Source: Planctomycetota bacterium (lineage in GTDB: Bacteria > Planctomycetota > UBA1135 > UBA2386). From it: 64,000 nucleotides of DNA. The translations under genes were made by a program, and so were the position numbers. Numbering within the stretch: the stretch's first letter is position 1; each line of letters opens with the position of its first letter. This document shows, piece by piece, positions 10,194 to 26,042 of the stretch. The stretch covers positions 3,456,001-3,520,000 of the forward strand of contig OZ245006.1 of assembly GCA_965223545.1 (NCBI GenBank). The letters are read 5' to 3'. The notes beneath the pieces were generated by a model. It saw only the letters and a program-made list of their open reading frames with translations. It was not told the origin of the DNA and made no database searches.

Positions 10194-10775
10194 ATGCGAT
10201 CCGTGCGCGTTCCACTCCTCGCCACCCTCTGCCTTCTGCCGACGATCCACCACCTCTTCGCGACCCCGGCGCCGGCGCCACCCGTGTCCTCGAAGGACCC
10301 GGTGTTCGAGCACCTTCTCGGCACCTGGGACCTGAGCTACACCGTTCGCACCTCGGCGGACGCGACCCCGTCGGTCGATCGCGGTGTCGAGCGACACCGC
10401 CTCGCCGCCGGCGGCTTGTTCAAAGTCGTCGAGTTCGAGGGCGAGATGTTCGGAGAAGCCTATGACTCCATCGGGATCATGAGCCGGGATCCGAACAGCG
10501 ACGAGTACACGACTTGGTACTTCGACAACAGCAACTCGCAGGCGCAGGTCTCGAAGGGCACTTGGGACGCAAGCACGCGACAGATGATCAAGTGGTCCGA
10601 TGGCGCCGACTTCGATGGGACGCCGGGCCGATGGAAGCAAGTCCTCGATCTGTCGAAGCCCGAACGCTATCGACTCACGATGCTGGCGGTCCGGGCGGAC
10701 GGCGACGAGCGCGAGGCGATCGTGTGCGACGCGGTCCGCAAGCCGAAGTCCCGCGCCGGCGAGAAGGATCGCTGA
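10194..10775 (+). CDS. Secreted DUF1579-like protein
   Basis: AGGA RBS, signal peptide, LLGTW, GGLF, YTTWYFDN pattern. Confidence 0.65.
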   Translation: MRSVRVPLLATLCLLPTIHHLFATPAPAPPVSSKDPVFEHLLGTWDLSYTVRTSADATPSVDRGVERHRLAAGGLFKVVEFEGEMFGEAYDSIGIMSRDPNSDEYTTWYFDNSNSQAQVSKGTWDASTRQMIKWSDGADFDGTPGRWKQVLDLSKPERYRLTMLAVRADGDEREAIVCDAVRKPKSRAGEKDR

Positions 10776-11604
10776 CCACGGTCGCCGCCCGCGGTCGGCC
10801 GCGGAACTCCGATGGCGAAACGCCGAACAGTCGCTTGAACGACGCACTGAAGTGCGCGCGGCTGGCAAACCCCAGATCCACCGCGATCTCCACGGTCGGC
10901 TTGCCGGCGGTCAATAGCTCGAGTGAGCGGTGCAGCCGCAATCGCTGCACGTACGCGTGCAGCGTGAGCCCGGTCTCGGCACGGAACAAGCGCGCCAGAT
11001 GAAACGGCGACACCGCGCAGACAGCCGCCACTTCGGCGAGCGACGGGGCGGTCCTCCAGGTCTCGGCCAGGAACACGGCCGCACGCTGCGCGGCCGTCTG
11101 GTGCGCGGCGCGGGTCGCGGGCCGCGCCACACCACGCGACCGTGGGCGACCGCCGGCCAGGGTCTCCGCAACCAACCGCAGCGCCAACGCCCGTACCCGC
11201 GACGGCGCGGCTTCGCCCAGGGCCGCGAGCAGCCGCTGGTGCAGGAGTTCGACCTGGGGCGTGCGCGGCACCACCGACGGCAGGCGGTCGCTGGCCGGCA
11301 CTTGGCCGGTCAACACCGAATGGCTCAGCGCCACATAGGTGCACCGGCCTTCTGGTTGGTGGTGGCGATAGCGGTACGCCTCGTCGGCGACGTAGCACAC
11401 GGCAACCGCGCAGCTGCCGACGACCGTGCCGCGCGGACTCGCTTTGGTCCACGCTCCGGCCCGCGGAAACACGAGCTGGAAGCTGGGGGCGCTCCGCGTC
11501 GAGGTCCATCCAGAGTCCGGCCAGGTCCACGGATGGTCGTCGATCCGCACACCGCCTTCGGCGAAGCGCGTGGTGCCATAGACGGGAAGGTCGCAATCGG
11601 CCAC
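10675..11604 (-). CDS. AraC family transcriptional regulator
   Basis: SPFHLARLFRAETG and IAVDLGFASRAHFSASFKRLFGVSPSEFR double HTH. Confidence 0.9.
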   Translation of the reverse strand: MADCDLPVYGTTRFAEGGVRIDDHPWTWPDSGWTSTRSAPSFQLVFPRAGAWTKASPRGTVVGSCAVAVCYVADEAYRYRHHQPEGRCTYVALSHSVLTGQVPASDRLPSVVPRTPQVELLHQRLLAALGEAAPSRVRALALRLVAETLAGGRPRSRGVARPATRAAHQTAAQRAAVFLAETWRTAPSLAEVAAVCAVSPFHLARLFRAETGLTLHAYVQRLRLHRSLELLTAGKPTVEIAVDLGFASRAHFSASFKRLFGVSPSEFRGRPRAATVVSDPSRRRGTSACGPRRTRSPRARRRPPGPPAS

Positions 11605-11682: not shown

Positions 11683-14600
11683 TCAAGGCGCCCGAGCCGC
11701 GCCGCCGACCGCCCGCAGCGCCTGCTGCCCGCCCATCGCGACGACCACCTTGCCGGTGTGCTTGGCCGCGGCCATGTGCTCGAACGCGCGCACCGCGTCG
11801 GTCGCGGCAAACACTTCGTGCGGCAAGGGCGCGAACGAGCCGTCGGCGAACCGCTCGGCCAGCGCCCGCCAGCTCTCGGCGAAGCCCGGCATACGGGGGC
11901 CGATCATCACTGCGATGAACTGCAGACTGTTGGCAAACGGGGCCAAGCCGATCGGCGTGTTGGCGAAGATGTCCTGCGCACCCAGCTCGAGGAAACGGCC
12001 GTAGGGCCCCAGCACTGCAAGACCCTTGGCGATGAACTCACCCGCCAGGGAGTTGAGGACCAGATCGACGCCACGACCAGCGGTGGCTTCCATGACGCGG
12101 TCCGCGAACTCCGTGGTCCGGGAGTTCATCACGTGCTCGATACCCATCGCCCGCAGCGTCGCGCGCTTGGCGTCGCTGCCGGCAGTGGCGTAGATCTCCG
12201 CCCCGCGCCACTGCGCGACCTGCACCGCGGCGAGACCGACGCCGCCGGCGGCGGCGTGGATCAAGACCTTCTCGCCGGCCTGCATCCGGCCGAGGGTGAT
12301 CAGCGCGTGGTAGGCGGTGAGGAACGAGATCGGGATCGTCGCCGCCGCTTCCACCGACAGGGCCTGGGGCTTGGCCGCGACGACCGCGGCCGGCACCGTG
12401 ACATACGCGCTGAAGCTCGACGACGACAGCGCGACGACTTCGTCGCCGACCGCAAAGCCGGTCACTCCTGCGCCGATACGGGCAATCCGGCCGGCGCACT
12501 CCAAGCCGATCTCCGGCACGCCACCGTCCGACGCCGGCATCAGCCCCAGCGCGAACAGCACGTCCTTGAAGTTCAAGCCGGTGGCCAGCACCTCGATCTC
12601 GACCTCGCCGTCGGCGGGCGGGCGGCGCGCGCCGCGCACGAAGGCGAGCTCTTCGAGCAGACCGGGCTCGGTGATCTTCAGCGTCACGTTCGCCTCGTCA
12701 CTCTCGGCACTGTCGGCACCGCCGGCCTGCTCGCCGGCGGCCGCCGCGTCCGCCCGGCGCAGGGCGTAGCCCTCGATCCGCACGAGCTCGGCGCCGCTCT
12801 GGTCGACCACGACGACATCGAAACGGCGCTCGCCGGCTGCCGGACTCGGCTGCTCTTCGATGAAGCTGAACGCCGTCGGTGTCATCGCGCCGCGCACGAC
12901 GACGCGCTCGTAGGCAAACGGCAGCATCCCCGCACCGCTCTCTTCGCGGAAACCCACCGCGACGTCGAGGAGCGCGGGATGCAGGCCGTAGCCGCGGTCT
13001 TCGGCCACGGCCGAGGCCGGCAGCTGCATCTCCGTCAACCGCCGCTGATCCCCGAACCAGACCCGGCGCGCGCTGCCCCACCGCGGCCCGAGAGTCATGA
13101 AGCCGGTCGCCTGCTCGAGCTCGTCCGACGCGACTTCGAGCTCGCGCTCCGCGCAGCGCGCGCGCAGGGCCTGCACGTCGTGCCGCGGCTGCGCGCCGCG
13201 CTCGCCGACCACCAGCTGGCCGGTGGCGTGCTCGCTCAGCTCTCCGTCGGCGCCCTCGCTCTCGACGACGAAGTCCGCAGCCCCCTCGCTGACGGTCAGC
13301 ACGGTGCGCACTTCGCGTTCGCCGTCGGTGGGCACCGACAGCGGCGCCAAGAAGAACACCGAGCGCAGCTCGATCGCGGCGCCGCCGGCCAACGACGCGG
13401 CGGCGTGCTGCTCGAACGCCGCCCGCGCCAGCTCGAGATACGCAGTGCCGACCAACACCGGCTCGCCGTGGATGCGGTGCTCGCCCAACACCCAGTGCTG
13501 CGCCGGCGACAACCGCGACGTCCACACCAGCCGCCCGTCGTCGTCGGTGTGCCGGGTCTCGAACAAGGGGTGGTCGGCGGCCACCGGCGGCGTCGCCAGC
13601 GACGGCTTGCTCTCGGCAGCCGCCGGTTTGCCACCCACAAGCTGGGCCTGCGCGGCGAGCGCCGCGACGTTGGGTGATTCGAGCACCGCGCGCAGCGCCA
13701 ACGCGATGCCGTGCTTCTGCTTGAGCCGGGCGATCATCCGGTGGCCGATCAGCGAGTCGAAGCCGAGCTGGAAGAAATCGTCGTCCCGGCCGATTTGCGC
13801 CACTCCCAACAGCGACTGGACGACGCTGGCGATCGCCTGCTCGACCTCGCCCGAAGGCGGCGCGTACGCGGTCGCCAGCTCGGGGCGCTCGTGACCGCCG
13901 TCCTCCTCGCCACTGGCGTTCGCCACCGCGGTGGACTCGGCGTCCTCGACCGTGTCGGCCGCGAGCCGCGCCGGCAGATCGAAGGTCGACACCAACAGCT
14001 GGGGCAGCCCGGCGTGCACCGCGCGGACGAAGACCTCGCGGCCATCCTCGTCGGACAAGCCCTTGGCCAACACCTCGCGGTGGGCCGCCGCCATCTCCGC
14101 CGGCACGTCGGCCTCCGCCGCCATCCCGGCCTCGCTCCACGCATCCCAGTTGATGGTGACCGCGCGCCGGGCCCGGCCGCGCGCGGAGTGCGCGAACGCA
14201 TCGAGGAAGGCGTTGGCCGCGGTGTAGTCCACCGATCCGACACCGCCCTTGACCGCGGTCACCGACGAGCAGAGCGCGAAGAACTCGAGCGGGGCGTCGC
14301 CGAGCGCGGCGTCCAGCGCCAGGGTACCGCGCACCTTGGGCGCCAGCACGTGCGCCGCCTCCGCCGCGGTGCGGTTGGCGACCAGCCCTCCGGTCGCGGT
14401 GCCGGCCGCGTGCACGACCCCGCGCACCCGGCCAAAGCGGTCGACGCAGCGCTGCACGACGGCGCGCATCGCCGCCGCGTCCTGCACATCCGCCGTCTCC
14501 AAGACGACCGTGACGCCCGCGGCCTCGAGCGCACCGATCCGCCGCATGCGCCGGCTGGTGCGATCTTCATCACCGTGCTGGGCGCGCCAGGCGTCCCATT

Positions 14601-17600
14601 CCTCGCGCGGCGGCAGGCCGCGGCGCGAAACCAAGACGAGCGCGGAACGCGGCGCCTTGGCCAACAGCTCGGCCAGTGCCAAACCGACACCGCCGACTCC
14701 ACCGGTGATCAGATATGCGCCGGCATCCACCCCTTCGCGGTTCCACACCGGAACGTCGGTTGCAGCCTGCGGCGCCGGCACGGCGCCGGGCAGCCAGCGC
14801 AGCCCGCGCCGCAGCGCCACCACTCCCTGCGCGGCGGTGCCCCACTCGCGCACCAGCTCCTCGACGGTGGCACTCGCGTCCGGATCGACCTCGAGGTCGA
14901 CCAACCGGCAGCGGACGTTGGGCTGCTCGGCGGGGATCACCCGGCACGGCCCCAACATGAGCGCGCGCTCCGGCAGAGACGTCGTCTCACCGCAGACATC
15001 GAACAAGCCGCGGGTCACGACCTCGACGCGCAGCGGGCGTTCGTCGCCCGCCTCGGCCAACACCCGACCCAAGAGCATCAGCGCGTAGAAGCCGCGCGCC
15101 TCGCGCTCCGCGAGGGCGTCGAGCGAAGACGCGCCGCTCGCGGCGACCTGCCAGAGATGGATGACGCGATCGACGCCACCGCCCGCCGCGCTCCACAGCG
15201 CGTCCCAGTCCTCGCGCACATCCGCGCGCAGCGTGTACTCGCCTTCGCCGGTGGCCGCGAAGCGCTCGCCGATGCGGGCCACGGTGACCTCGCCAACCCG
15301 GCGCAGCGCTTCGACCACCGACGCCGACAACGGGTCGTCGCCGGCCAACACCAGCGTGCGCGCCGGCGGATCGGCGGCGACCGCAGCCGCGGCGCGCTGC
15401 CACGAGGGCGCCCAGAACCAATCCGCGACCGCCGCCTTGCGCTCCAGCGAGCCGCCCGCCAGGCCGGGCGGGGTCGCGTCGCGCTCGATCCAGTAGCGCT
15501 TGCGCGCGAAGGGGTAGCCGGGCAGCGGCACGCGCCGCGCTTCGCGACCGTGCACCTGCGGCCAAGCGATGTCGACGCCCGCCATCCACAGCCGGCCGAC
15601 CGCGGTCAACAGGCATTGCCAATCCGACTGCTGATCCTGCGGGTGTCGCATCGACGGCACCACAGCGCGACCGCGCGCGCGCTTGCCCTGTTGCCGCACC
15701 AGCGCGCTCAGCGTCTGGCCCGGCCCCACCTCGAGCAGCACCAGCTCGGGATTGTCGAGCACCGTGCGCGCGCCGGTCGCAAACCGCACCGGGTCCCGCA
15801 GGTTGCGCACCCAGTAGTCCGCGTCGGCCCACAGCTCGGGCTCGATCCACTCGCCGGTCACGGTCGACGCACACGGCAGCTGCGCCGGCGCCGGTTGGAC
15901 CCCGGCGACCACGGCGCGGAACGGCGCCGACATCGGCTCCATCATCGACGAGTGGAAGGCGTGGCTGGTGTGCAGCAACCGGCACGGCAGGTCCTGCCGC
16001 GCCAGCTCCTCCTGCAGCTGCGCCACCGCGTCGCGCGGACCGCCGACGACGCACGACGACGGGCCGTTGATCGCCGACAGCGACAGCTCGCCGTTGAGCA
16101 GCGGCTGCACCTCACCCTCGGGCAGGCCGACGCTGAGCATGTCGCCCGCCGGCAGCTCCTGCATCATCCGACCGCGTTCGGCCACCAGGCGCAGCGCGTC
16201 CTCCAGCGAGAACACCCCGGCGAGCGTGGCGGCGACGTACTCGCCGATGCTGTGACCGATGACCGCCGCGGGGCGCACGCCCCACGACTCCCACAGCATC
16301 GCCAGCGCGTACTCGACGGCGAACATCGCCGGCTGGGTGACACGGGTCTGCGACAGCTGGGCGGTGTGCTCCTCGGCGGGCTCGGAGGGATACACGACCT
16401 CGCGCAGATCCAAGCCCAATGGCTCCGTCAACAGCGCCGCGCACCGATCGAACGCATCGCGGTACACCGCGGCGTGTTCGTAGAGCTCGCGCCCCATGCC
16501 GACGTACTGCGCGCCCTGCCCGGGAAACATGAACGCCACCGGTGGGTGCTCGGCGCCGCGCACACCGCTGATCAACTGGCGCGCATTGCCCGACTCGAGC
16601 GCTGCAGCCAGCGCGACCGCATCCGCGCCGACGGTGAAACAGCGGTGCTCGAAGCCGCTGCGGCTGCGCTGCGTCGTCGCCGCGACTTCGCCCGGATCGA
16701 GGTCGGGCTCGGCCCGCAGCCGCGCGGCGAGCGCTTGGCGATAGGCATCCAGCGCCGCCTCGGTCTTCGCCGACAGGGTGACGAGGTGCTGGGGCCGCGC
16801 TGCCGCGCGCGCCGGCGAGGCTGGCGCCTCTTCCAGCACCACGTGGGCATTGGTGCCGCCGATGCCGAACGAGCTGACCGCGGCGCGGCGCGGGGACGCC
16901 CCGCGCGACCATGGCTGCAGCCGGTCGGCGACGTAGAACGGACTGGCGGCGAAGTCGATCTCCGGGTTGGGCTCCTCGAAGTTCGGGCTCGGCGGGATCG
17001 CCTCGTGCTCGAGCGCCAGCACCGCCTTGATCAGACCCGCGACCCCGGCGGCGGTGTCGGCGTGGCCGATGTTGGCCTTCACCGAGCCGAGCGCGCAGTA
17101 CTGCTGGCGCTCGGACTCGCCGAACGCCTTGCTGAGCGCGGCGACCTCGATCGGATCACCCAGCGGCGTCGCCGTGCCGTGGCACTCGACGTAACCGATC
17201 GACGAAGGGTCGATGCCGGCGGCCTGCTGCGCCGCGCGGATCACCGCCGCCTGCCCCTCGACGCTGGGGGCGGTGAAGCCGACCTTGTTGGCGCCGTCGT
17301 TGTTGAGTGCGGCACCGGCGATCACCGCGCGGATCGGGTCGCCATCCTCGATCGCCCGATCGAGGCGCTTGAGCAGGACGACGCCGACGCCTTCGCCGCT
17401 GAACGTGCCCTGCGCGCCGCTGTCGAACGGCCGGCAGCGTCCGTCCGGCGAGAAGATCTCGCCCTCGCGATACAGGTGACCGACGCGCTGCGGTACGCCG
17501 ACGAACACGCCGCCGGCCAGCGCCATGTCGCTCTGTCCGGTGAGCACGCTCTCGCACGCCTGCACGACCGCGACGAGGGACGTCGAGCAAGCCGTGTAGA

Positions 17601-20600
17601 CCTCGACCGCCGGACCGCGCAGGTTGAGCTTGTACGAGGCGCGCGTCGCCAAGAACGACACGTCGGTCAGCGCCAGATCGAAGGCATCGGCGGCCTCGAC
17701 GTAGGCGCGGTTGCCCAGCAGGTTGTTGCGGTGGTAGTTGTTGGGCGCGCTGCCGGCGTAGACGCCGACCGCGCCGGGCGTGCGCAACGGGTCGTAGCCG
17801 GCCGACTCGAGCGCGACGTATGCGGCTTCCAAGAACAGCCGCACCTGCGGGTCGGTCCGCTCGGCCTCCTTCGGGCTGAAACCGAAGAAGGAGGCGTCGA
17901 ACCGATCGACGTCGTCGAGCACGGCGCGCACCGGGACGTAGCGCTCATCGCGCAACCAGCGCTCGGCGATTCCGCTGGCGCGCAGCTCCTCTTCGCTGAA
18001 GCGCGCGCCACACTCGACGCCATCGCGCAGCACCTGCCAGAACGCGTCGAGGTCGGGCGCCTTGGGGAAGCGGCCGGCCATGCCGATCACCGCGACCGCC
18101 GCCGACTGCGCCGGGGCTGGCCTGGGAGTGGCCGCCGCGGCCTCGTCGCCGCGATCCCGCGGCGCGTCGGCGACCCCGAGGCGCTGCGCCATCGCGGCCA
18201 CGGTGGGATGCTGGAACACCTCGGCCACCGACAGCTGCTCGCCGAATTCGGCCTGCAGCTTGGCGCGCAGCCGCACCAAGTGGAGCGAGTGCCCACCGAT
18301 CTCGAAGAAGTTGTCCTCCCGGCCGACGTGCTCGACCTCGAGGATCGAGCGCCACAGCGCCGCGACGCGCTGCTCACCGGCACCGCGCAGCGGCACCGCC
18401 ACGGCCGCGGTCGCCGGCGCCACGCGCTCGCTCAACCGCGCCCGGTCGATCTTGCCGTTGGGTGTCAGCGGCAAGGCCTCGAGCACTTCGATCGAGGACG
18501 GGACCATGTAGTCCGGCAAGCTGCGCGCCAGGTGTGCTCGCAGCGCGGCCGCATCGAGCGCGGCGCCGGCGACCGGCACCGCGAATGCCGCGAGCTGCAC
18601 GTCTCCGGCCGCGCGCGACTGCGCGACGACGACGCATTCGGCCACCGCCGAGTGCGCCACCAGCACCTGCTCGATCTCGCCCAGCTCGATGCGAAACCCG
18701 CGCACCTTGACCTGGTGATCGATGCGCCCGAGAAAGTCCAGCTGCCCATCCGCGCGCCAGCGCACCAGGTCGCCGGTGCGATACAGGCGTCCGTCGCCGA
18801 ACGGGGAGTCGATGAACTTCTCGGCGGTGAGCTCCGGCCGCGCATGGTAGCCGCGAGCCAAGCTGGCGCCGCCGATCCACAGCTCGCCGGGCACCCCGAC
18901 CGGCACCAGCTGGCGGTGCCGGTCCACGACGAAGGCGGAGACGTTGTCGATCGGCCGGCCGATCGGCGGCGCGACGCCGGGCTGCAGGTCGGCCGGCACG
19001 TCGCAGTAGGTCGCCACCACCGCGCTCTCGGTCGGCCCGTACTGGTTGACCAGGCGAAACGGCAATGCCGGCGGCGGCGGGGCGTTGAGCCGATCGCCAC
19101 CGGTGAGCAGCGCCCGCAGGCAGAGACCGGCGGGCATCGGCTCGGCCAGCATCGCCTCGGCCAGCGGAGTCGGCGCAAAGCTGAGGGTCACGCGCTGGTC
19201 GGCGAGCCATTCGAGCAACTGTTCCGGCACCTTGCGCACGTCTTCACCGGGCAGGTGCACACTGGCGCCGGCGGTGAGGTACGGCCACAGCTCCCAGACA
19301 GTCGCATCGAACGCCAACCCCGCGACCAGCGACGCGCGGTCGGCGGCGACCACGGCGTACTCGCGGCGGTGCCAGAAGATCAGGTTGAGCAGGGCGGCGT
19401 GCTGGATCTCGACCCCCTTGGGCCGCCCGGTCGAACCCGAGGTGAAGATCACGTACACCGTGTCGTCGACGCCGAGCTCGACGTCGGGGTTGTCGGCCGG
19501 CATCGACGCCACCGCGTCGCGCTCCGCGTCGAGATCGAGGAGCTCCGCTCCACCACCCGAGAGCGCGGCCGCCATGCCGGCGTGGGTGATGAGCACGGGC
19601 ATGGCCGCGTCCTCGATCATTCCCGCCAAGCGCTCGGGCGGATTGGCCGCATCGAGCGGAACGTAGGCGGCGCCGGCCTTCATCACTCCGAGCAGGGCGG
19701 CGACCATGTCGACCCGCCGCTGCATCAGCACACCGATCAGCGCTCCGCGCCGCGCACCGCGCCGCAGCAGCGCATGCGCGATGCGGTTGGCGCGGGCGTT
19801 GAGCGCGGCGTACGACAGCTGCTCCACTTCGTCGGACAGCGCGATCGCGGCGGGATCGTCCGCCGCGCAGCGCTCGACCAGTCGGTGGACGCAATCCGTG
19901 CGGGGGTCGTCGGTGCGGGTCATCGCACCGTCCGCCAGCTGGGCGCGCTCGGCAACGGTGAGCATTGGCAGCTGGGCCACCGGCCGGTCGGGATCGGCCA
20001 CCAAAGCGGCGACGAGCTCGCCGAGGTGCGCGGCCATCCGTTCGACCGTCGCTGCGTCGAACAGGTCGGCGCTGTACTCGAGCTCGCCAACCAAGCCGGC
20101 CGCGGTCTCGCGCACTGCCAGGGTCAGGTCGAACTTGGCGGTGTCGTGCGGGGTCTCCACCGGCTCGACATCGAGCCCGCCGAGGCGCATCGGCGCGCCG
20201 GCCTCGTCGTAGACGAACGCCACTTGAAACAGCGGGTTGGCGCTCGGATCGAGGTCCTGCCGCAGCGCGGCGACCAACGGCTCGAACGGCATGTCCTGGT
20301 GCTGGTACGCGCCGAGACACATGTCGCGCACGCGGCGCAGCAGCTGGCGGCCACTGGGCGCGCCGGAGAGATCGGCGCGGGCGACCAGCATGTTCATGAA
20401 GAAACCGACCAAACCCTGGGTCTGCGGTTGGTCACGCCCCGCCGTGGGCATGCCGATGGCGATGTCGTCCTGCCCGCTGTAGCGGTGGAGCAGGGCGGCG
20501 TAGACCGCGAGCAGCGTCATCGTCGGCGTGCAGGCCTCGCGCCGGCCGAGCGCCAACAGCTCGTCGGCGAGTCGGCGATCGAGCTGCATCCGGCGGGTGC

Positions 20601-21462
20601 CGCCGGCAAAGCTGCGCTCGCGTGGCCGGGGCCGGTCGGCCGGCAGCACCAGCGGAGCGAGGCCGTCGAGCTGCTCGCGCCAGTACGCCAGCAGCGCGGC
20701 GCCGTCGCGGTCGTAGCGCCTGCGCTGCCAGTCGGCGTAGTCCGTGTAGCGGATCGGTAGCGCTGGGAGCTGCGCATCGGCGCCGTCGACGCGGGCGGCG
20801 TAGAGCGCGCCAAGGTCGTGCTGAATGACGGCGAACGACCATCCATCGCCGACCAGGTGCGGCATCACCAACGACAGCACGTGGTCGTCCACACCGATCC
20901 GCAGCAAGCGCGCGCGCAGCAACGGCACGCGGTCGAGGGCGAAGCCGACCGCCGCATGCGCGCGCGCGGCGCGGACGGCGTCGGCCAACGGCTCGGGCGC
21001 GCCGGTCAGATCCTCGACCTCCAAGCCGAACGGCGGCGCGTCTTCGACCTGCTGCACGGGCTCGTCGTCGCGCAGCGCGAACGTCGTGCGCAACGCCTCG
21101 TGGCGCGCGATCAGCTGCTCGAGGCTCCAGCGCAGCGCCTCGACGTCGAGCGCACCGCGCAGCCGCAAGTGCAGCGGGATGTTGTAGGCCGCGTTGTCGT
21201 CGCTCAGCGCGTAGACCAGCCACAACCGCTGCTGCGCCAGTGACAGGGGCAGGGCGCCGGCCTGCTGCAAGCGCGGGATCTCGCCAGCCGGCGCGTCCTC
21301 GCTGGTCAGCATGGCGACCAGCGCGCTCTTGTGCTCGGCCAGCTGGTCGCGCAACGCGGCGGTGAGCACGCCCTTGGGCGCATTCACTTTGAGGCGCTCG
21401 CCCTCGACGGACACGCGGACCCCGAGGTCGCGGAGCCGGAGCAGAAGATCGGCGGCAGTCAT
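11683..21462 (-). CDS. Hybrid NRPS/type I PKS (TubC_N docking-C-A-PCP-KS-AT-KR-ACP-DH-ER)
   Basis: C: SLAQQRLW, PHLVGDGWS. A: FTSGSTGRPKG, YGPTE, YRTGD, PNGK. PCP: GGHSL. KS: TACSTS, HGTAT, GH. AT: GHSIG, HAFHS. KR: GGVGGVG, YTAAN. ACP: GFDSL. DH: EHRIHG, HPALLD. ER: LNFKD, HAAAGGVG. Confidence 0.95.
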   Translation of the reverse strand: MTAADLLLRLRDLGVRVSVEGERLKVNAPKGVLTAALRDQLAEHKSALVAMLTSEDAPAGEIPRLQQAGALPLSLAQQRLWLVYALSDDNAAYNIPLHLRLRGALDVEALRWSLEQLIARHEALRTTFALRDDEPVQQVEDAPPFGLEVEDLTGAPEPLADAVRAARAHAAVGFALDRVPLLRARLLRIGVDDHVLSLVMPHLVGDGWSFAVIQHDLGALYAARVDGADAQLPALPIRYTDYADWQRRRYDRDGAALLAYWREQLDGLAPLVLPADRPRPRERSFAGGTRRMQLDRRLADELLALGRREACTPTMTLLAVYAALLHRYSGQDDIAIGMPTAGRDQPQTQGLVGFFMNMLVARADLSGAPSGRQLLRRVRDMCLGAYQHQDMPFEPLVAALRQDLDPSANPLFQVAFVYDEAGAPMRLGGLDVEPVETPHDTAKFDLTLAVRETAAGLVGELEYSADLFDAATVERMAAHLGELVAALVADPDRPVAQLPMLTVAERAQLADGAMTRTDDPRTDCVHRLVERCAADDPAAIALSDEVEQLSYAALNARANRIAHALLRRGARRGALIGVLMQRRVDMVAALLGVMKAGAAYVPLDAANPPERLAGMIEDAAMPVLITHAGMAAALSGGGAELLDLDAERDAVASMPADNPDVELGVDDTVYVIFTSGSTGRPKGVEIQHAALLNLIFWHRREYAVVAADRASLVAGLAFDATVWELWPYLTAGASVHLPGEDVRKVPEQLLEWLADQRVTLSFAPTPLAEAMLAEPMPAGLCLRALLTGGDRLNAPPPPALPFRLVNQYGPTESAVVATYCDVPADLQPGVAPPIGRPIDNVSAFVVDRHRQLVPVGVPGELWIGGASLARGYHARPELTAEKFIDSPFGDGRLYRTGDLVRWRADGQLDFLGRIDHQVKVRGFRIELGEIEQVLVAHSAVAECVVVAQSRAAGDVQLAAFAVPVAGAALDAAALRAHLARSLPDYMVPSSIEVLEALPLTPNGKIDRARLSERVAPATAAVAVPLRGAGEQRVAALWRSILEVEHVGREDNFFEIGGHSLHLVRLRAKLQAEFGEQLSVAEVFQHPTVAAMAQRLGVADAPRDRGDEAAAATPRPAPAQSAAVAVIGMAGRFPKAPDLDAFWQVLRDGVECGARFSEEELRASGIAERWLRDERYVPVRAVLDDVDRFDASFFGFSPKEAERTDPQVRLFLEAAYVALESAGYDPLRTPGAVGVYAGSAPNNYHRNNLLGNRAYVEAADAFDLALTDVSFLATRASYKLNLRGPAVEVYTACSTSLVAVVQACESVLTGQSDMALAGGVFVGVPQRVGHLYREGEIFSPDGRCRPFDSGAQGTFSGEGVGVVLLKRLDRAIEDGDPIRAVIAGAALNNDGANKVGFTAPSVEGQAAVIRAAQQAAGIDPSSIGYVECHGTATPLGDPIEVAALSKAFGESERQQYCALGSVKANIGHADTAAGVAGLIKAVLALEHEAIPPSPNFEEPNPEIDFAASPFYVADRLQPWSRGASPRRAAVSSFGIGGTNAHVVLEEAPASPARAAARPQHLVTLSAKTEAALDAYRQALAARLRAEPDLDPGEVAATTQRSRSGFEHRCFTVGADAVALAAALESGNARQLISGVRGAEHPPVAFMFPGQGAQYVGMGRELYEHAAVYRDAFDRCAALLTEPLGLDLREVVYPSEPAEEHTAQLSQTRVTQPAMFAVEYALAMLWESWGVRPAAVIGHSIGEYVAATLAGVFSLEDALRLVAERGRMMQELPAGDMLSVGLPEGEVQPLLNGELSLSAINGPSSCVVGGPRDAVAQLQEELARQDLPCRLLHTSHAFHSSMMEPMSAPFRAVVAGVQPAPAQLPCASTVTGEWIEPELWADADYWVRNLRDPVRFATGARTVLDNPELVLLEVGPGQTLSALVRQQGKRARGRAVVPSMRHPQDQQSDWQCLLTAVGRLWMAGVDIAWPQVHGREARRVPLPGYPFARKRYWIERDATPPGLAGGSLERKAAVADWFWAPSWQRAAAAVAADPPARTLVLAGDDPLSASVVEALRRVGEVTVARIGERFAATGEGEYTLRADVREDWDALWSAAGGGVDRVIHLWQVAASGASSLDALAEREARGFYALMLLGRVLAEAGDERPLRVEVVTRGLFDVCGETTSLPERALMLGPCRVIPAEQPNVRCRLVDLEVDPDASATVEELVREWGTAAQGVVALRRGLRWLPGAVPAPQAATDVPVWNREGVDAGAYLITGGVGGVGLALAELLAKAPRSALVLVSRRGLPPREEWDAWRAQHGDEDRTSRRMRRIGALEAAGVTVVLETADVQDAAAMRAVVQRCVDRFGRVRGVVHAAGTATGGLVANRTAAEAAHVLAPKVRGTLALDAALGDAPLEFFALCSSVTAVKGGVGSVDYTAANAFLDAFAHSARGRARRAVTINWDAWSEAGMAAEADVPAEMAAAHREVLAKGLSDEDGREVFVRAVHAGLPQLLVSTFDLPARLAADTVEDAESTAVANASGEEDGGHERPELATAYAPPSGEVEQAIASVVQSLLGVAQIGRDDDFFQLGFDSLIGHRMIARLKQKHGIALALRAVLESPNVAALAAQAQLVGGKPAAAESKPSLATPPVAADHPLFETRHTDDDGRLVWTSRLSPAQHWVLGEHRIHGEPVLVGTAYLELARAAFEQHAAASLAGGAAIELRSVFFLAPLSVPTDGEREVRTVLTVSEGAADFVVESEGADGELSEHATGQLVVGERGAQPRHDVQALRARCAERELEVASDELEQATGFMTLGPRWGSARRVWFGDQRRLTEMQLPASAVAEDRGYGLHPALLDVAVGFREESGAGMLPFAYERVVVRGAMTPTAFSFIEEQPSPAAGERRFDVVVVDQSGAELVRIEGYALRRADAAAAGEQAGGADSAESDEANVTLKITEPGLLEELAFVRGARRPPADGEVEIEVLATGLNFKDVLFALGLMPASDGGVPEIGLECAGRIARIGAGVTGFAVGDEVVALSSSSFSAYVTVPAAVVAAKPQALSVEAAATIPISFLTAYHALITLGRMQAGEKVLIHAAAGGVGLAAVQVAQWRGAEIYATAGSDAKRATLRAMGIEHVMNSRTTEFADRVMEATAGRGVDLVLNSLAGEFIAKGLAVLGPYGRFLELGAQDIFANTPIGLAPFANSLQFIAVMIGPRMPGFAESWRALAERFADGSFAPLPHEVFAATDAVRAFEHMAAAKHTGKVVVAMGGQQALRAVGGAARAP

Positions 21463-21708: not shown

Positions 21709-22677
21709 TCAGCCCGCCGCGGCGGCCGCCGCTTGCTGGGCGGTGACGAACTGCTGCAGCTGCGTCAGGTCGTGCGCGCGGCGCACGGCCAAGGCGGCGC
21801 CGTGGGTCGGCGCGCATTCCAGCACCGCCAACGAGGCGGCGATGCTGAAGGTCTGCGTCGCGTCGGGCCGTGGTTTGAGCGAGCGCACCTCTTCGCGCAG
21901 CCCGACGACGAAGTCGACCAGCGTTGGAACGGGCTGCTCGACAAAGGTCAGCAGCGCGACCTCGTCGAAGTCGTTCTGCCAGATGCGAACCCCAGCCGCG
22001 CGGAACGCCGTCCGCAGCTCGAGGAACCGCCGCTCGACCTCGCGCTCGGGAGCCGGGTTGAAGAAGAGCAGGTGTGATGCCTGCTGCAGCCGATCGCCCG
22101 CCGGCATGCCGGCGGCGCGCAGCGCGCGGTAGTGCCCCTCGATGCGGCGGGCCATCTCCGGCACGGCCTGGTCGCTCGCGGTGAGCAGCGCGCACGCGGC
22201 ATAGTCGTCCGGACCGGTCAACCACCAGTGGTGCTGCTTCATCATCTCGTAGATCGCGGCAAACCGCTGGACGACAGCCGCCCCCACCCGGCGACCGTGC
22301 TCGACCCGCAGCAGCAGGACCGCGATCGCCTCGTTGCCGCCACCGCGCCGCAGACCCTGCTCGCGAAACATGCCGGTGGTGCGCTCGTACTCGGCGACGA
22401 AGTCCGCCGCCCGATCGCCGAGCCGCTGCAGCGCGGCGGCGAAGGCGAAGCGCAGCGAGGAGCGCATCGGCCCGAACCAACTCGCGCGGCGGCGCAGCTC
22501 GTCGGCGCAGGCCAGGGTGGCGTCCACCAGCGCGAAGGGCTGCCCCTCGGCGCGCACCAAGCTCAGCGCGGCATAGCGGAACGGCAGCGCGCCGGTGTGC
22601 CAGCGCCGGCGGTGTTCGAACTCGCGGTAGATCTCGGCGTGGCGGCGCACCGCAGCGCCGGACGAGAGCATCGGCAT
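21709..22677 (-). CDS. DUF4003-like protein
   Basis: Helical protein with MKQHHWWLTGPDDY motif and Ala-rich C-terminus. Confidence 0.65.
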   Translation of the reverse strand: MPMLSSGAAVRRHAEIYREFEHRRRWHTGALPFRYAALSLVRAEGQPFALVDATLACADELRRRASWFGPMRSSLRFAFAAALQRLGDRAADFVAEYERTTGMFREQGLRRGGGNEAIAVLLLRVEHGRRVGAAVVQRFAAIYEMMKQHHWWLTGPDDYAACALLTASDQAVPEMARRIEGHYRALRAAGMPAGDRLQQASHLLFFNPAPEREVERRFLELRTAFRAAGVRIWQNDFDEVALLTFVEQPVPTLVDFVVGLREEVRSLKPRPDATQTFSIAASLAVLECAPTHGAALAVRRAHDLTQLQQFVTAQQAAAAAAG

Positions 22678-24189: not shown

Positions 24190-24951
24190 TCACGAGAGGT
24201 GTTCGGCTTCCCGTTGGAGTGGTTTGCCCAAAGCGGTGGCGCGCTGGGTGAAGAGGCGCTCGGCGAACTCGTAGAGCTCGACGTCCAGGGCGTTGCGTTC
24301 GGCGATGCAGGCGCGGACCTCGGGCGAGACGGCTTCGCGCGCGGGGCGGTCGGCGGTGATGTTGCGGCGCTCGCCCCGCATGTCGCCCCAGCCGAAGGTC
24401 AGCTTGAACAGCGCCAGCGATTCGTTGAAGCGCTCGGTCAACCCGACCGCGCCGAACTCGGCCAGGCGCGCCTTGGCGTCGTCGAGCATCGCGCGGGTGC
24501 ACTGGCCCCAGTGCACGCCGGCGTGGCCATTGGGCGTCAGCCAGCGCACGTGGTCATTGTCGGCCTCCAGCGTCACCCGCGTCGTGACGTAGTCCTGTAG
24601 GGTGATGCCGCCCTGAACCACCTTGTCGTGGAGGTAGTGCTCCGGCCGCGACAGCACGAAGTGGTAGTGGCTGATGACGCGATCCACGGGCTCGCGCAGC
24701 ATGGTGATGTAGGTCGCCGGCCGCGACAGCAGCTCGTGCACACCGTAGTGCAAATGGCCGCTGATCACGTCGAACGAGTCGCGCTCGGCCTGCGAACGGT
24801 TTGCGAACTCCTCCAGGTTTTGCGGTGCCCCGGTGAGCCGGGCAAACCGACCCCGCGGATACTGGCGAAACAGGATCGCTTCGAAGGACGAGCCCGCCGC
24901 CTTTGGCATGTGCATGAAGATGAGGGGGTTCGGCTTGGTCCGGCAGCGCAT
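24190..24951 (-). CDS. Sulfotransferase family 2 protein
   Basis: FMHMPKAAGSS (5'-PSB) and LREPVDRVISHY (3'-PB). Confidence 0.88.
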   Translation of the reverse strand: MRCRTKPNPLIFMHMPKAAGSSFEAILFRQYPRGRFARLTGAPQNLEEFANRSQAERDSFDVISGHLHYGVHELLSRPATYITMLREPVDRVISHYHFVLSRPEHYLHDKVVQGGITLQDYVTTRVTLEADNDHVRWLTPNGHAGVHWGQCTRAMLDDAKARLAEFGAVGLTERFNESLALFKLTFGWGDMRGERRNITADRPAREAVSPEVRACIAERNALDVELYEFAERLFTQRATALGKPLQREAEHLS

Positions 24952-25016
24952 ACCATCCTTGCAAAGCGGCGCGGACCGACCGTTTCAACCCCGGAATCGC
25001 CACTCGTCCCCCAAGC

Positions 25017-26042
25017 ATGTCCACGCCTGCACCGCGGGTCTCGGTTCTGCTGCCCGTCTACCGGGCGGAGAACACCGTGCGGCGCGCCGCCGAGTCGATC
25101 CTCTTGGGCCATTGGCGTGATCTCGAGCTGATCGCCGTCGTCGACGGCAGCGACGACGCCTCGGGGGCCGTGCTCGAAGCGCTGGCCCGCACCGAGCCGC
25201 GCCTGCGCGTCCTGCACACCGCGCACGGCGGGGTGGCAGCCGCGGCCAACCGCGCGTTCGAGGCCAGCCGGGCGCCGCTGATCGCGCGGATGGACGCCGA
25301 CGACGAGGCCCTCCCCGACCGCTTGGCCCGCCAGGTGCACGCTCTCGAGCACGGCTGCGCCGACGTCGTCGGCAGCCGCGTGGCCATCGTCGACGCCACC
25401 GGCGCGGCGGTGACGGCCATGCGGCGCTACCAGCGCTGGCTCAACGCACTGCTGACCCCCGAGGCGATCGCGGCGGCGCGCTTCGTCGAGCTGCCGCTGG
25501 TCAACCCCAGCCTCACTGGCCGGCGCGCGGCGTTCGCGCTCGGCTACCGGCAATGGGACGACACCGCCGCGGCGATGCCCGAGGACTACGATTGGTTCTT
25601 GCGCGCGGTCGCGCGCGGCTTTCGCTTCGCCAAGGTCGACGACGTGCTGTTGCGATGGACCGAGTCCGCGGATCGGTTGACACGCCGCCACCCCGACTAC
25701 ACCACGGCGGCGTTCGATCGCTGCCGCCGCGCCCACTTGCGCGCGGGCCCGCTGCGGGCGATCGCGCGCGTCGACCTGTGGGGTGTCGCCCGCACCGGCA
25801 AGCCGTGGCTGCGGTGGCTGCAACAAGAGGGCATCCATGTCCGAGAGGCCTACGACATCGACCCGCGGCGCGTCGGGCAGAGGGTGCACGGCCAGCAAGT
25901 CCGCCACTGCGACACCCTGGGCGACGCCGACGGGACGCCGATCCTGGTCGCGGTGGGAGCCGACGGCGCGCGCGCGCAGATCGACGCCGCGCTGCGGCAA
26001 CGCGGCTACCGGCCCGGCGTGGACGCGTGGTTCGTCGCTTGA
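25017..26042 (+). CDS. Glycosyltransferase family 2
   Basis: VSVLLPVY, VVDGSDD, ARMDADD, PEDYD. Confidence 0.9.
   Translation: MSTPAPRVSVLLPVYRAENTVRRAAESILLGHWRDLELIAVVDGSDDASGAVLEALARTEPRLRVLHTAHGGVAAAANRAFEASRAPLIARMDADDEALPDRLARQVHALEHGCADVVGSRVAIVDATGAAVTAMRRYQRWLNALLTPEAIAAARFVELPLVNPSLTGRRAAFALGYRQWDDTAAAMPEDYDWFLRAVARGFRFAKVDDVLLRWTESADRLTRRHPDYTTAAFDRCRRAHLRAGPLRAIARVDLWGVARTGKPWLRWLQQEGIHVREAYDIDPRRVGQRVHGQQVRHCDTLGDADGTPILVAVGADGARAQIDAALRQRGYRPGVDAWFVA

Follow-up and report, generated by a model that had tools for sequence, protein, structure and literature searches.

Models of reducing polyketide synthases (PKSs) assume that the dehydratase (DH) and enoylreductase (ER) lie between the condensing domains and the carrier, and because of this placement reductive-loop swaps are hard to engineer. 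In canonical modules with an acyltransferase (AT) in cis, such as MAS (5BP4/9D2Y) and those of the Cur and Jam systems, DH and ER stand between the ketosynthase (KS) and the acyl carrier protein (ACP) and are split by psiKR, the structural subdomain of the ketoreductase (KR). A second family is KR-first and occurs in hybrids with non-ribosomal peptide synthetases (NRPSs), tubulysin TubF being one such hybrid module. In the accessible text of the respective sources, colibactin ClbB is given as C-A-T-KS-AT-KR-DH-ER-T (PMC5490422), modules for APD-lipodepsipeptides carry KR-DH without ER (PMC13110770; bioRxiv 10.64898/2026.09.17.752105), and a survey counted the KR-DH order in 10,327 of 220,645 DH domains (PMC13110770). 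Here, we describe P0001, a hybrid NRPS-PKS gene in a 64,000-nucleotide stretch of a Planctomycetota genome (contig OZ245006.1, positions 3,456,001 to 3,520,000; hereafter the window). Its product has the domain order of neither family: the DH and ER follow the ACP, and the protein then ends.

The KR-ACP-DH-ER module of P0001 is real, intact and rare. All six activities of a canonical cis-AT reducing module (KS, in-chain AT, KR, DH, ER and ACP, each with its catalytic motifs) are present in one chain, and the folds match (Table 1). The order does not follow KS-AT-DH-psiKR-ER-KR-ACP with the carrier last; DH and ER lie outside the KS-to-ACP span, with no psiKR between them. A sequence-only reading of the window had proposed the order KR-ACP-DH-ER-stop, and Pfam and motif mapping reproduced it, with coordinates agreeing within ~30 bases. 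By Pfam the KR covers 14721-14131, and its own C-terminal helix-strand follows at ~14064-13972; its NADPH motif maps to 14703 and its Lys, Ser and Tyr to the regions of ~14346, ~14271 and ~14232. The same reading had called the KR K/S/Y, the DH H/D and the ER nucleotide-binding motif intact, which motif mapping upheld, and its GFDSL segment is a true PP-binding domain; that this segment is no carrier is ruled out by the Pfam score and the folded model. After the ER, 16 residues remain to the stop codon, and, as had also been claimed, Pfam found no thioesterase (TE), R or C domain downstream of the ER in the 11683-21462 open reading frame (ORF). By a motif rule, the AT motifs are predicted to be of the malonyl-CoA type.

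Table 1. Domains of the hybrid NRPS-PKS encoded by P0001 (positions in the window)
Feature	Position	Strand	Evidence and remarks
Hybrid NRPS-PKS gene P0001, TubC_N-C-A-PCP-KS-AT-psiKR-KR-ACP-DH-ER	11683..21462	-	Single ORF, 3259 aa; Pfam
TubC_N beta-hairpin docking domain	21307..21456	-	PF18563 52.4 bits, cut-off 26
Condensation (C) domain	19936..21258	-	Motif PHLVGDG, second His retained
Adenylation (A) domain	18451..19875	-	Code DAWFLGQVVK, predicted Leu
Peptidyl carrier protein (PCP)	18178..18372	-	GGHSL
KS	16828..18099	-	Cys-His-His intact
AT	15601..16533	-	GHSIG/HAFH; malonyl-CoA predicted
psiKR, structural KR subdomain	14794..15357	-	PF21394; model and structure match
Catalytic KR, uninterrupted, C-terminal helix-strand included	13972..14721	-	Pfam, motif mapping, model
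Internal ACP	13645..13845	-	PF00550 47.2 bits, cut-off 20.8; GFDSL at 13764
DH	12736..13572	-	His motif 13482, HPALLD 12981, both intact
ER, final domain of the protein	~11734..12693	-	NADPH motif HAAAGGVG at 12258, intact

Searches of proteins, genomes and metagenome loci for KR-ACP-DH-ER C-termini showed the order to be rare, with five proteins in two genera of one family. These are P0001 and its paralogue L004 (C1:1096168) in the genome of the window (G000), and L039, L041 and L043 in a genome from another genus of the same family (G009); we call them tail proteins after their trailing DH-ER. The G009 orthologue of P0001 is 58% identical over its full length and has an identical domain order, and the matching public loci are labelled Planctomycetota. 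The layout was found in 3 of 120 protein matches of a first search and in 0 of 120 in a search at 878-2505 aa, with junction coverage of at least 95% in 3 of 120 matches. It occurred in 3 of 35 genome loci, all three being the G009 genes, and in 0 of 43 metagenome loci among the matches listed. Within the best 150 matches from 1.84 billion representatives, only the 4 input sequences matched unbroken. Full-length matches came from 2 of 91 genomes in the family and 2 of 221 in the class, and in the remaining 89 family genomes the layout did not turn up; the best 17 candidates per genome were scored in the family scan and the best 7 in the class scan. Since multi-domain proteins crowd lists ranked by summed score, remote cases below ~300 bits may be missed. 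Besides the five, none of the proteins examined ends in ACP-DH-ER. The counts across searched proteins, genomes and metagenome loci do not support the view that the layout is common. In the literature, neither KR-ACP-DH nor ACP-DH-ER gave a string match; this is a weak negative and does not establish absence of the layout from print, because a published layout taken as control, KS-AT-ACP-KR (iterative), came back equally blank. Literature listings on the subject likewise showed no paper with this layout.

The other tail proteins have features of their own. L004:1169-10432 and L041:2937-12341 are orthologues in which the KS Cys is replaced by Ser while both His are kept (KS 69% identical), and both have a convergent KS-(AT)-ACP-luciferase-like monooxygenase (LLM) gene nearby. 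The third G009 protein, L043:1966-11370, has a dead AT; next to it (L042) stand a free AT and an AMP-ligase together with a 3-hydroxyacyl-CoA dehydrogenase and a small ACP, and these neighbours may provide an unusual extender unit.

That the layout is an assembly artefact has a negligible probability. The genome is metagenome-derived, and run X1, possibly the very sample it came from, yielded a single contig spanning 10000-18699 with zero differences; from X4, a second sample of the same study, a single contig spans 12238-14232, again with zero differences. Such unbroken contigs over the domain junctions, together with five diverged copies in two genomes, rule out misassembly. Every domain is folded in an AlphaFold model of residues 2050-3245 (71 rows), with a mean predicted local distance difference test score (pLDDT) of 88.8 and values <50 solely in the KR-ACP, ACP-DH and DH-ER linkers. 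Its KR matches whole solved KRs (Z 39.5, root-mean-square deviation (rmsd) 2.1, 397 aligned), and its ER matches that of CurK (Z 41.0, rmsd 1.5, 316 aligned), with the CurF and JamJ ERs tied at Z 40.8 and 40.7.

Relatedness places the tail closest to the KR-first family. The nearest DH-ER matches of P0001 are mostly KS-AT-KR-DH-ER-T/ACP modules, and the resemblance to ClbB, APD and TubF extends to an NRPS-fed KS-AT, psiKR-KR before the DH, and a DH joined directly to the ER. The predicted chemistry is alike, amino acid plus malonate giving a reduced gamma-amino acid, and from its sequence P0001 is predicted to work like a fully reducing hybrid module of the ClbB type. In contrast, the KR-first hybrids have the ACP last and DH(-ER) upstream of it, mostly inside the KR, whereas P0001 has a whole KR and its DH-ER behind the ACP. 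We placed the DH by a profile of the KR's last helix-strand in a search-biased set of 223 DH-bearing KR-first modules: DH(-ER) was inside the KR in 196, after the whole KR in 16, and unplaceable in 11. In the inserted type the last KR helix-strand is encoded after DH(-ER), a reading of the linkers made at L083:8702-11395 and 21 other loci; solved KRs align with the L083 model over residues 1-791 (414 pairs, rmsd 2.3), skipping the DH at 431-724. Outside the tails themselves, the closest rows of the DH and ER trees are such in-KR modules, and the KR is whole in all five tail proteins. Because canonical, in-KR, after-KR and post-ACP modules are all found, the DH-ER cassette has four natural positions.

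The insertion of a DH into a KR is thus what usually underlies the "atypical KR-DH didomain" of many hybrid modules. The published descriptions covered here speak only of a KR-DH didomain, and the insertion might explain the unusual chemistry that such modules are reported to have. A KS-AT-KR-DH-ACP gene of ~2100-2300 aa plus a further domain of ~300 aa occurs in many genomes of the family and order (L019-L036, L148-L160); none was found in G000.

Carriers that serve domains behind them have precedents in KS-AT-ACP-LLM/AMT hybrids and in AT-less ACP-DH-KS PKSs. An ACP directly before a DH, in the order ACP-DH-KS, was seen in 4 AT-less proteins among 381 annotated, and the KS-(AT)-ACP-LLM gene type that neighbours two of the tail genes also puts a tailoring domain behind the carrier. 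The polyunsaturated fatty acid (PUFA) synthase PfaA and the enediyne synthase PKSE hold processing domains behind the carrier as well; these systems are iterative and have their KR after the ACP. P0001 does not belong with them, its KR preceding its single ACP, and the PfaA model TIGR02813 gives it 41 bits against a cut-off of 1010.

With regard to origin, the five tail ER domains form one clade (support 97; FastTree, 63 rows). The tail KS domains nest with DH-less C-A-PCP-KS-AT-KR-ACP genes of G000 and G009 (97 and 99, in a KS tree sampling 140 of 315 modules); forcing them together with the KS of in-KR DH-ER modules was rejected by the approximately unbiased (AU) test (p-AU 0.0002, 36 rows), and for the tail ACPs the highest scores are those against one another and against the DH-less ACPs of the lineage. 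These results suggest a single addition, in which a lineage-specific DH-less C-A-PCP-KS-AT-KR-ACP gene gained a DH-ER cassette of the KR-first type and was then duplicated; they also suggest that DH and ER can be added onto the end of a module. They back the proposal, made from the sequence alone, of a rearranged module with DH-ER as an appended tail. The opposite route, an ACP shifted within a KR-first module, is disfavoured by the KS and ER trees, the ACP scores and the p-AU value. A recent acquisition of the tail is rejected as well: GC content at third codon positions (GC3) is 0.90-0.95 across all ten domains and flat over the gene, with no step. A natural and conserved post-ACP DH-ER offers a direct test of whether these domains need a fixed position, and appending DH-ER to a KR-only module is a design that it suggests.

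The codes of the A domains bear on what the module would make. Those of all five intact tail copies, in two genera, read DAWFLG(H/Q)VVK, and those of sister modules DILQLGMIWK; as given in the accessible parts of two sources, DAWFLGNVVK denotes Leu and DILQLGMIWK Gly (PMC12283262, PMC7524897). The incoming chain, acyl or peptidyl, would first be taken over by TubC_N and C from one of the other proteins in a scattered NRPS/PKS set described below and be coupled to Leu on the PCP. The KS would then elongate it with malonyl from the AT, and the KR would give a statine-type beta-hydroxy thioester. The ACP, flexibly tethered at both ends, could next visit the trailing DH and ER, so that the predicted product, statine after the KR, would be a 4-amino-6-methylheptanoyl unit after DH and ER. 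Finally, another subunit, most likely a TubC_N-C-A(Gly) protein, would accept the chain at its C domain, or a free-standing C or TE protein would release it. We infer the substrates, cis action, partners and product of P0001.

Cis action of the tail on its own ACP, with hand-off or release by another protein, is the reading that we favor, at a probability of about 0.6. Reach in cis is plausible because the linkers flanking the ACP measure ~43 aa on the KR side and 15-38 aa on the DH side across the tail proteins (~25 aa in P0001), and a thioesterase behind a carrier is likewise reached by the ACP in cis. Several observations weigh against this reading. The structural model, with a predicted template modelling score (pTM) of 0.50, does not fix the placement of DH-ER relative to KR and ACP. 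Val replaces the Pro of HxxxGxxxxP in four of the five tail DH domains, where most relatives have Pro. L004 and L041 keep the tail despite their KS replacement, and L043 does so with its dead AT, which would fit use in trans. Several of the lineage's DH-less ACPs have an extended last helix, which the tail ACPs lack. The signal for a single origin is not uniform either: the DH tree needs 2 changes and the AT tree 3, and L043 falls outside the tail KS group in a smaller KS tree.

Some of these points would be explained if the tail were a shared reducing station acting in trans on the ACPs of DH-less subunits, besides or instead of its own, which we consider unlikely. No PKS DH domains were found in G000 other than those of its two tails, while six KS-(AT)-KR-ACP modules there have no DH, and the tail persists in the L004/L041 pair that lacks the KS catalytic Cys. 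Moreover, the best structural matches of the ER include those of CurF and JamJ, which, like LovC, act on the ACP of another protein. However, the ER of CurK, a normal in-module ER, ties with them, the module's own ACP is 25 aa away and would be supplied with the right substrate by the module itself, and the Leu-like code shared by all five tail modules fits a fixed cis product. If the tail were indeed shared, the level of reduction would depend on which proteins meet rather than on the content of each module, and DH-ER would amount to a portable unit that can be attached behind any KR module.

The replaced Pro, together with long DH and ER branches in two divergent paralogues, could also mean that the tail is a recombination passenger, folded but idle, and that the module makes statine only. 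This is very improbable in view of its maintenance. The His, Asp, HPxLD and ER NADPH motifs are kept in five of five copies, and ~620 aa have been retained through two duplications and a genus split. Identities between the P0001 orthologues (DH 56%, ER 67%, ACP 78%, KR 67%, A 64%, C 50%) put the ER level with the KR and back the earlier argument against decay; proportions of nonsynonymous and synonymous differences (pN/pS) in this pair are 0.31/0.54 for the DH and 0.22/0.49 for the ER. In addition, KR-first DHs most often have Gly at Asp+4, and mutagenesis has found the His-Asp dyad of one KR-first DH essential, according to the accessible text (bioRxiv 10.64898/2026.09.17.752105).

The sequence-only reading also held that product transfer or release must be non-standard, and this was not borne out. 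P0001 starts with TubC_N and C, most of its 18 sister genes in G000 have no release domain, and its G009 orthologue is the first gene of a run, overlapping by 4 bases a downstream TubC_N-C-A(Gly)-PCP-KS-AT-KR-ACP gene. For these reasons P0001 is most simply taken as a non-terminal subunit, which needs no release domain, so that the absence of one is not itself strange. Among the NRPS/PKS genes of G000, a terminal thioesterase occurs in three and a terminal hydrolase in one, and no strong R-domain match was found there (best E 1.5e-12). P0001 shares its N-terminal TubC_N ahead of a C domain with the beta-hairpin docking subunits TubC, EpoB and PcdK, and it differs from them, as far as these are covered in the accessible text (PMC13324335), in that hundreds of kb separate the likely partners in G000 and that its internal ACP has no free C-terminus for docking. 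According to the same source, the ACP body itself can be bound by a beta-hairpin docking domain even where no C-terminal motif is present, a mode that would suit the Gly subunit. A candidate donor for the TubC_N of P0001 is the G000 gene at C1:3079413, which ends in a short acidic partner-type motif.

A role as terminal subunit, with the tail blocking onward docking and a free C domain, a C-PCP-TE protein or a type II thioesterase releasing the product, is less probable. The ER has no C-terminal docking motif behind it, and the extended last helix missing from the tail ACPs may be a docking epitope. Candidate releasers are also encoded in G000: a free-standing C protein at C1:6948540, which has a G009 orthologue, a C-PCP-TE protein whose gene at C1:3441783 lies 23 kb from P0001, and the free thioesterase of C1:780848. 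Against such a role stand the position of the G009 orthologue, which opens a run and overlaps the gene of a TubC_N-C subunit, and the finding that no candidate release gene adjoins any of the five tail genes. Terminal placement is compatible with cis action by the tail and concerns the exit step only.

P0001 is one of 19 NRPS/PKS genes at 11 loci of G000 (C1, 292405 to 8055461), nearly all with one or two modules. Between G000 and G009 there are 11 one-to-one orthologue pairs and three more probable ones (KS and C trees), and the G009 genes lie on contigs C3, C4, C10, C25, C32, C102 and C223, some of them adjacent. The G000 orthologue of the G009 Gly subunit gene is 392 kb from P0001, and a second adjacent G009 pair (L047) is apparently split in G000, with support of only 92 for the KS pairing. 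From the one-to-one orthologues and the G009 adjacencies split in G000, the set therefore looks like a conserved pathway with scattered genes. A tentative extension, which we hold unlikely in its full form, is that about a dozen conserved, mostly single-module scattered proteins build gamma-amino acid chains of Gly-derived hydroxy units, statine and deoxystatine, the tail also processing intermediates of other subunits. P0001 points to a biosynthetic system of Planctomycetota that is conserved but scattered and has been seen here in metagenome assemblies only; mining by clusters would break it into orphans.

In the window, no biosynthetic neighbours of P0001 were found. It is flanked upstream by a gene for a DUF4003 protein (21709-22677, minus strand) and downstream by one for an AraC regulator (10675-11604, minus strand), and a promoter and terminator scan at the gene gave nothing above chance. 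There are no conserved neighbours between the G000 and G009 loci, the G009 flanks being a radical SAM gene and an NRPS-PKS. A sulfotransferase gene and a GT2 gene lie at 24190-26042 of the window, 3-5 kb upstream of P0001. Of the 17 sulfotransferase genes in G000, 2 (C1:291773 and C1:3066790) stand immediately beside an NRPS/PKS gene (shuffle p ~0.005); genes for glycosyltransferases and O-antigen ligases occur repeatedly around the set, with a GT4 gene near it in both genomes. A link of the set to surface glycans is possible from this gene content.

Several members of the set showed further particularities. The G000 Gly modules L007:8555-16432 and L008:11335-19272 have near-identical A and AT domains and different KS and C domains, which suggests gene conversion. 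In G009, the TubC_N-C-A-PCP-KS-AT-KR gene L037:11795-19682 has its ACP in a separate short frame, possibly by a frameshift or an assembly error. Some C-A-PCP and free C proteins (L008:4509-7916, L006:6825-10256, L052:7429-10887, L053:4140-7931 and L014:6544-8142) have short basic amphipathic ends that resemble membrane-targeting helices. Finally, a small cluster conserved in both genomes (L012/L013 and L048) combines a C-A(LLM insert)-PCP protein, a TauD-like oxygenase and a C-A-PCP protein with two hydrolases of the exosortase-associated type and a C protein that has a hydrolase of this type at its end.

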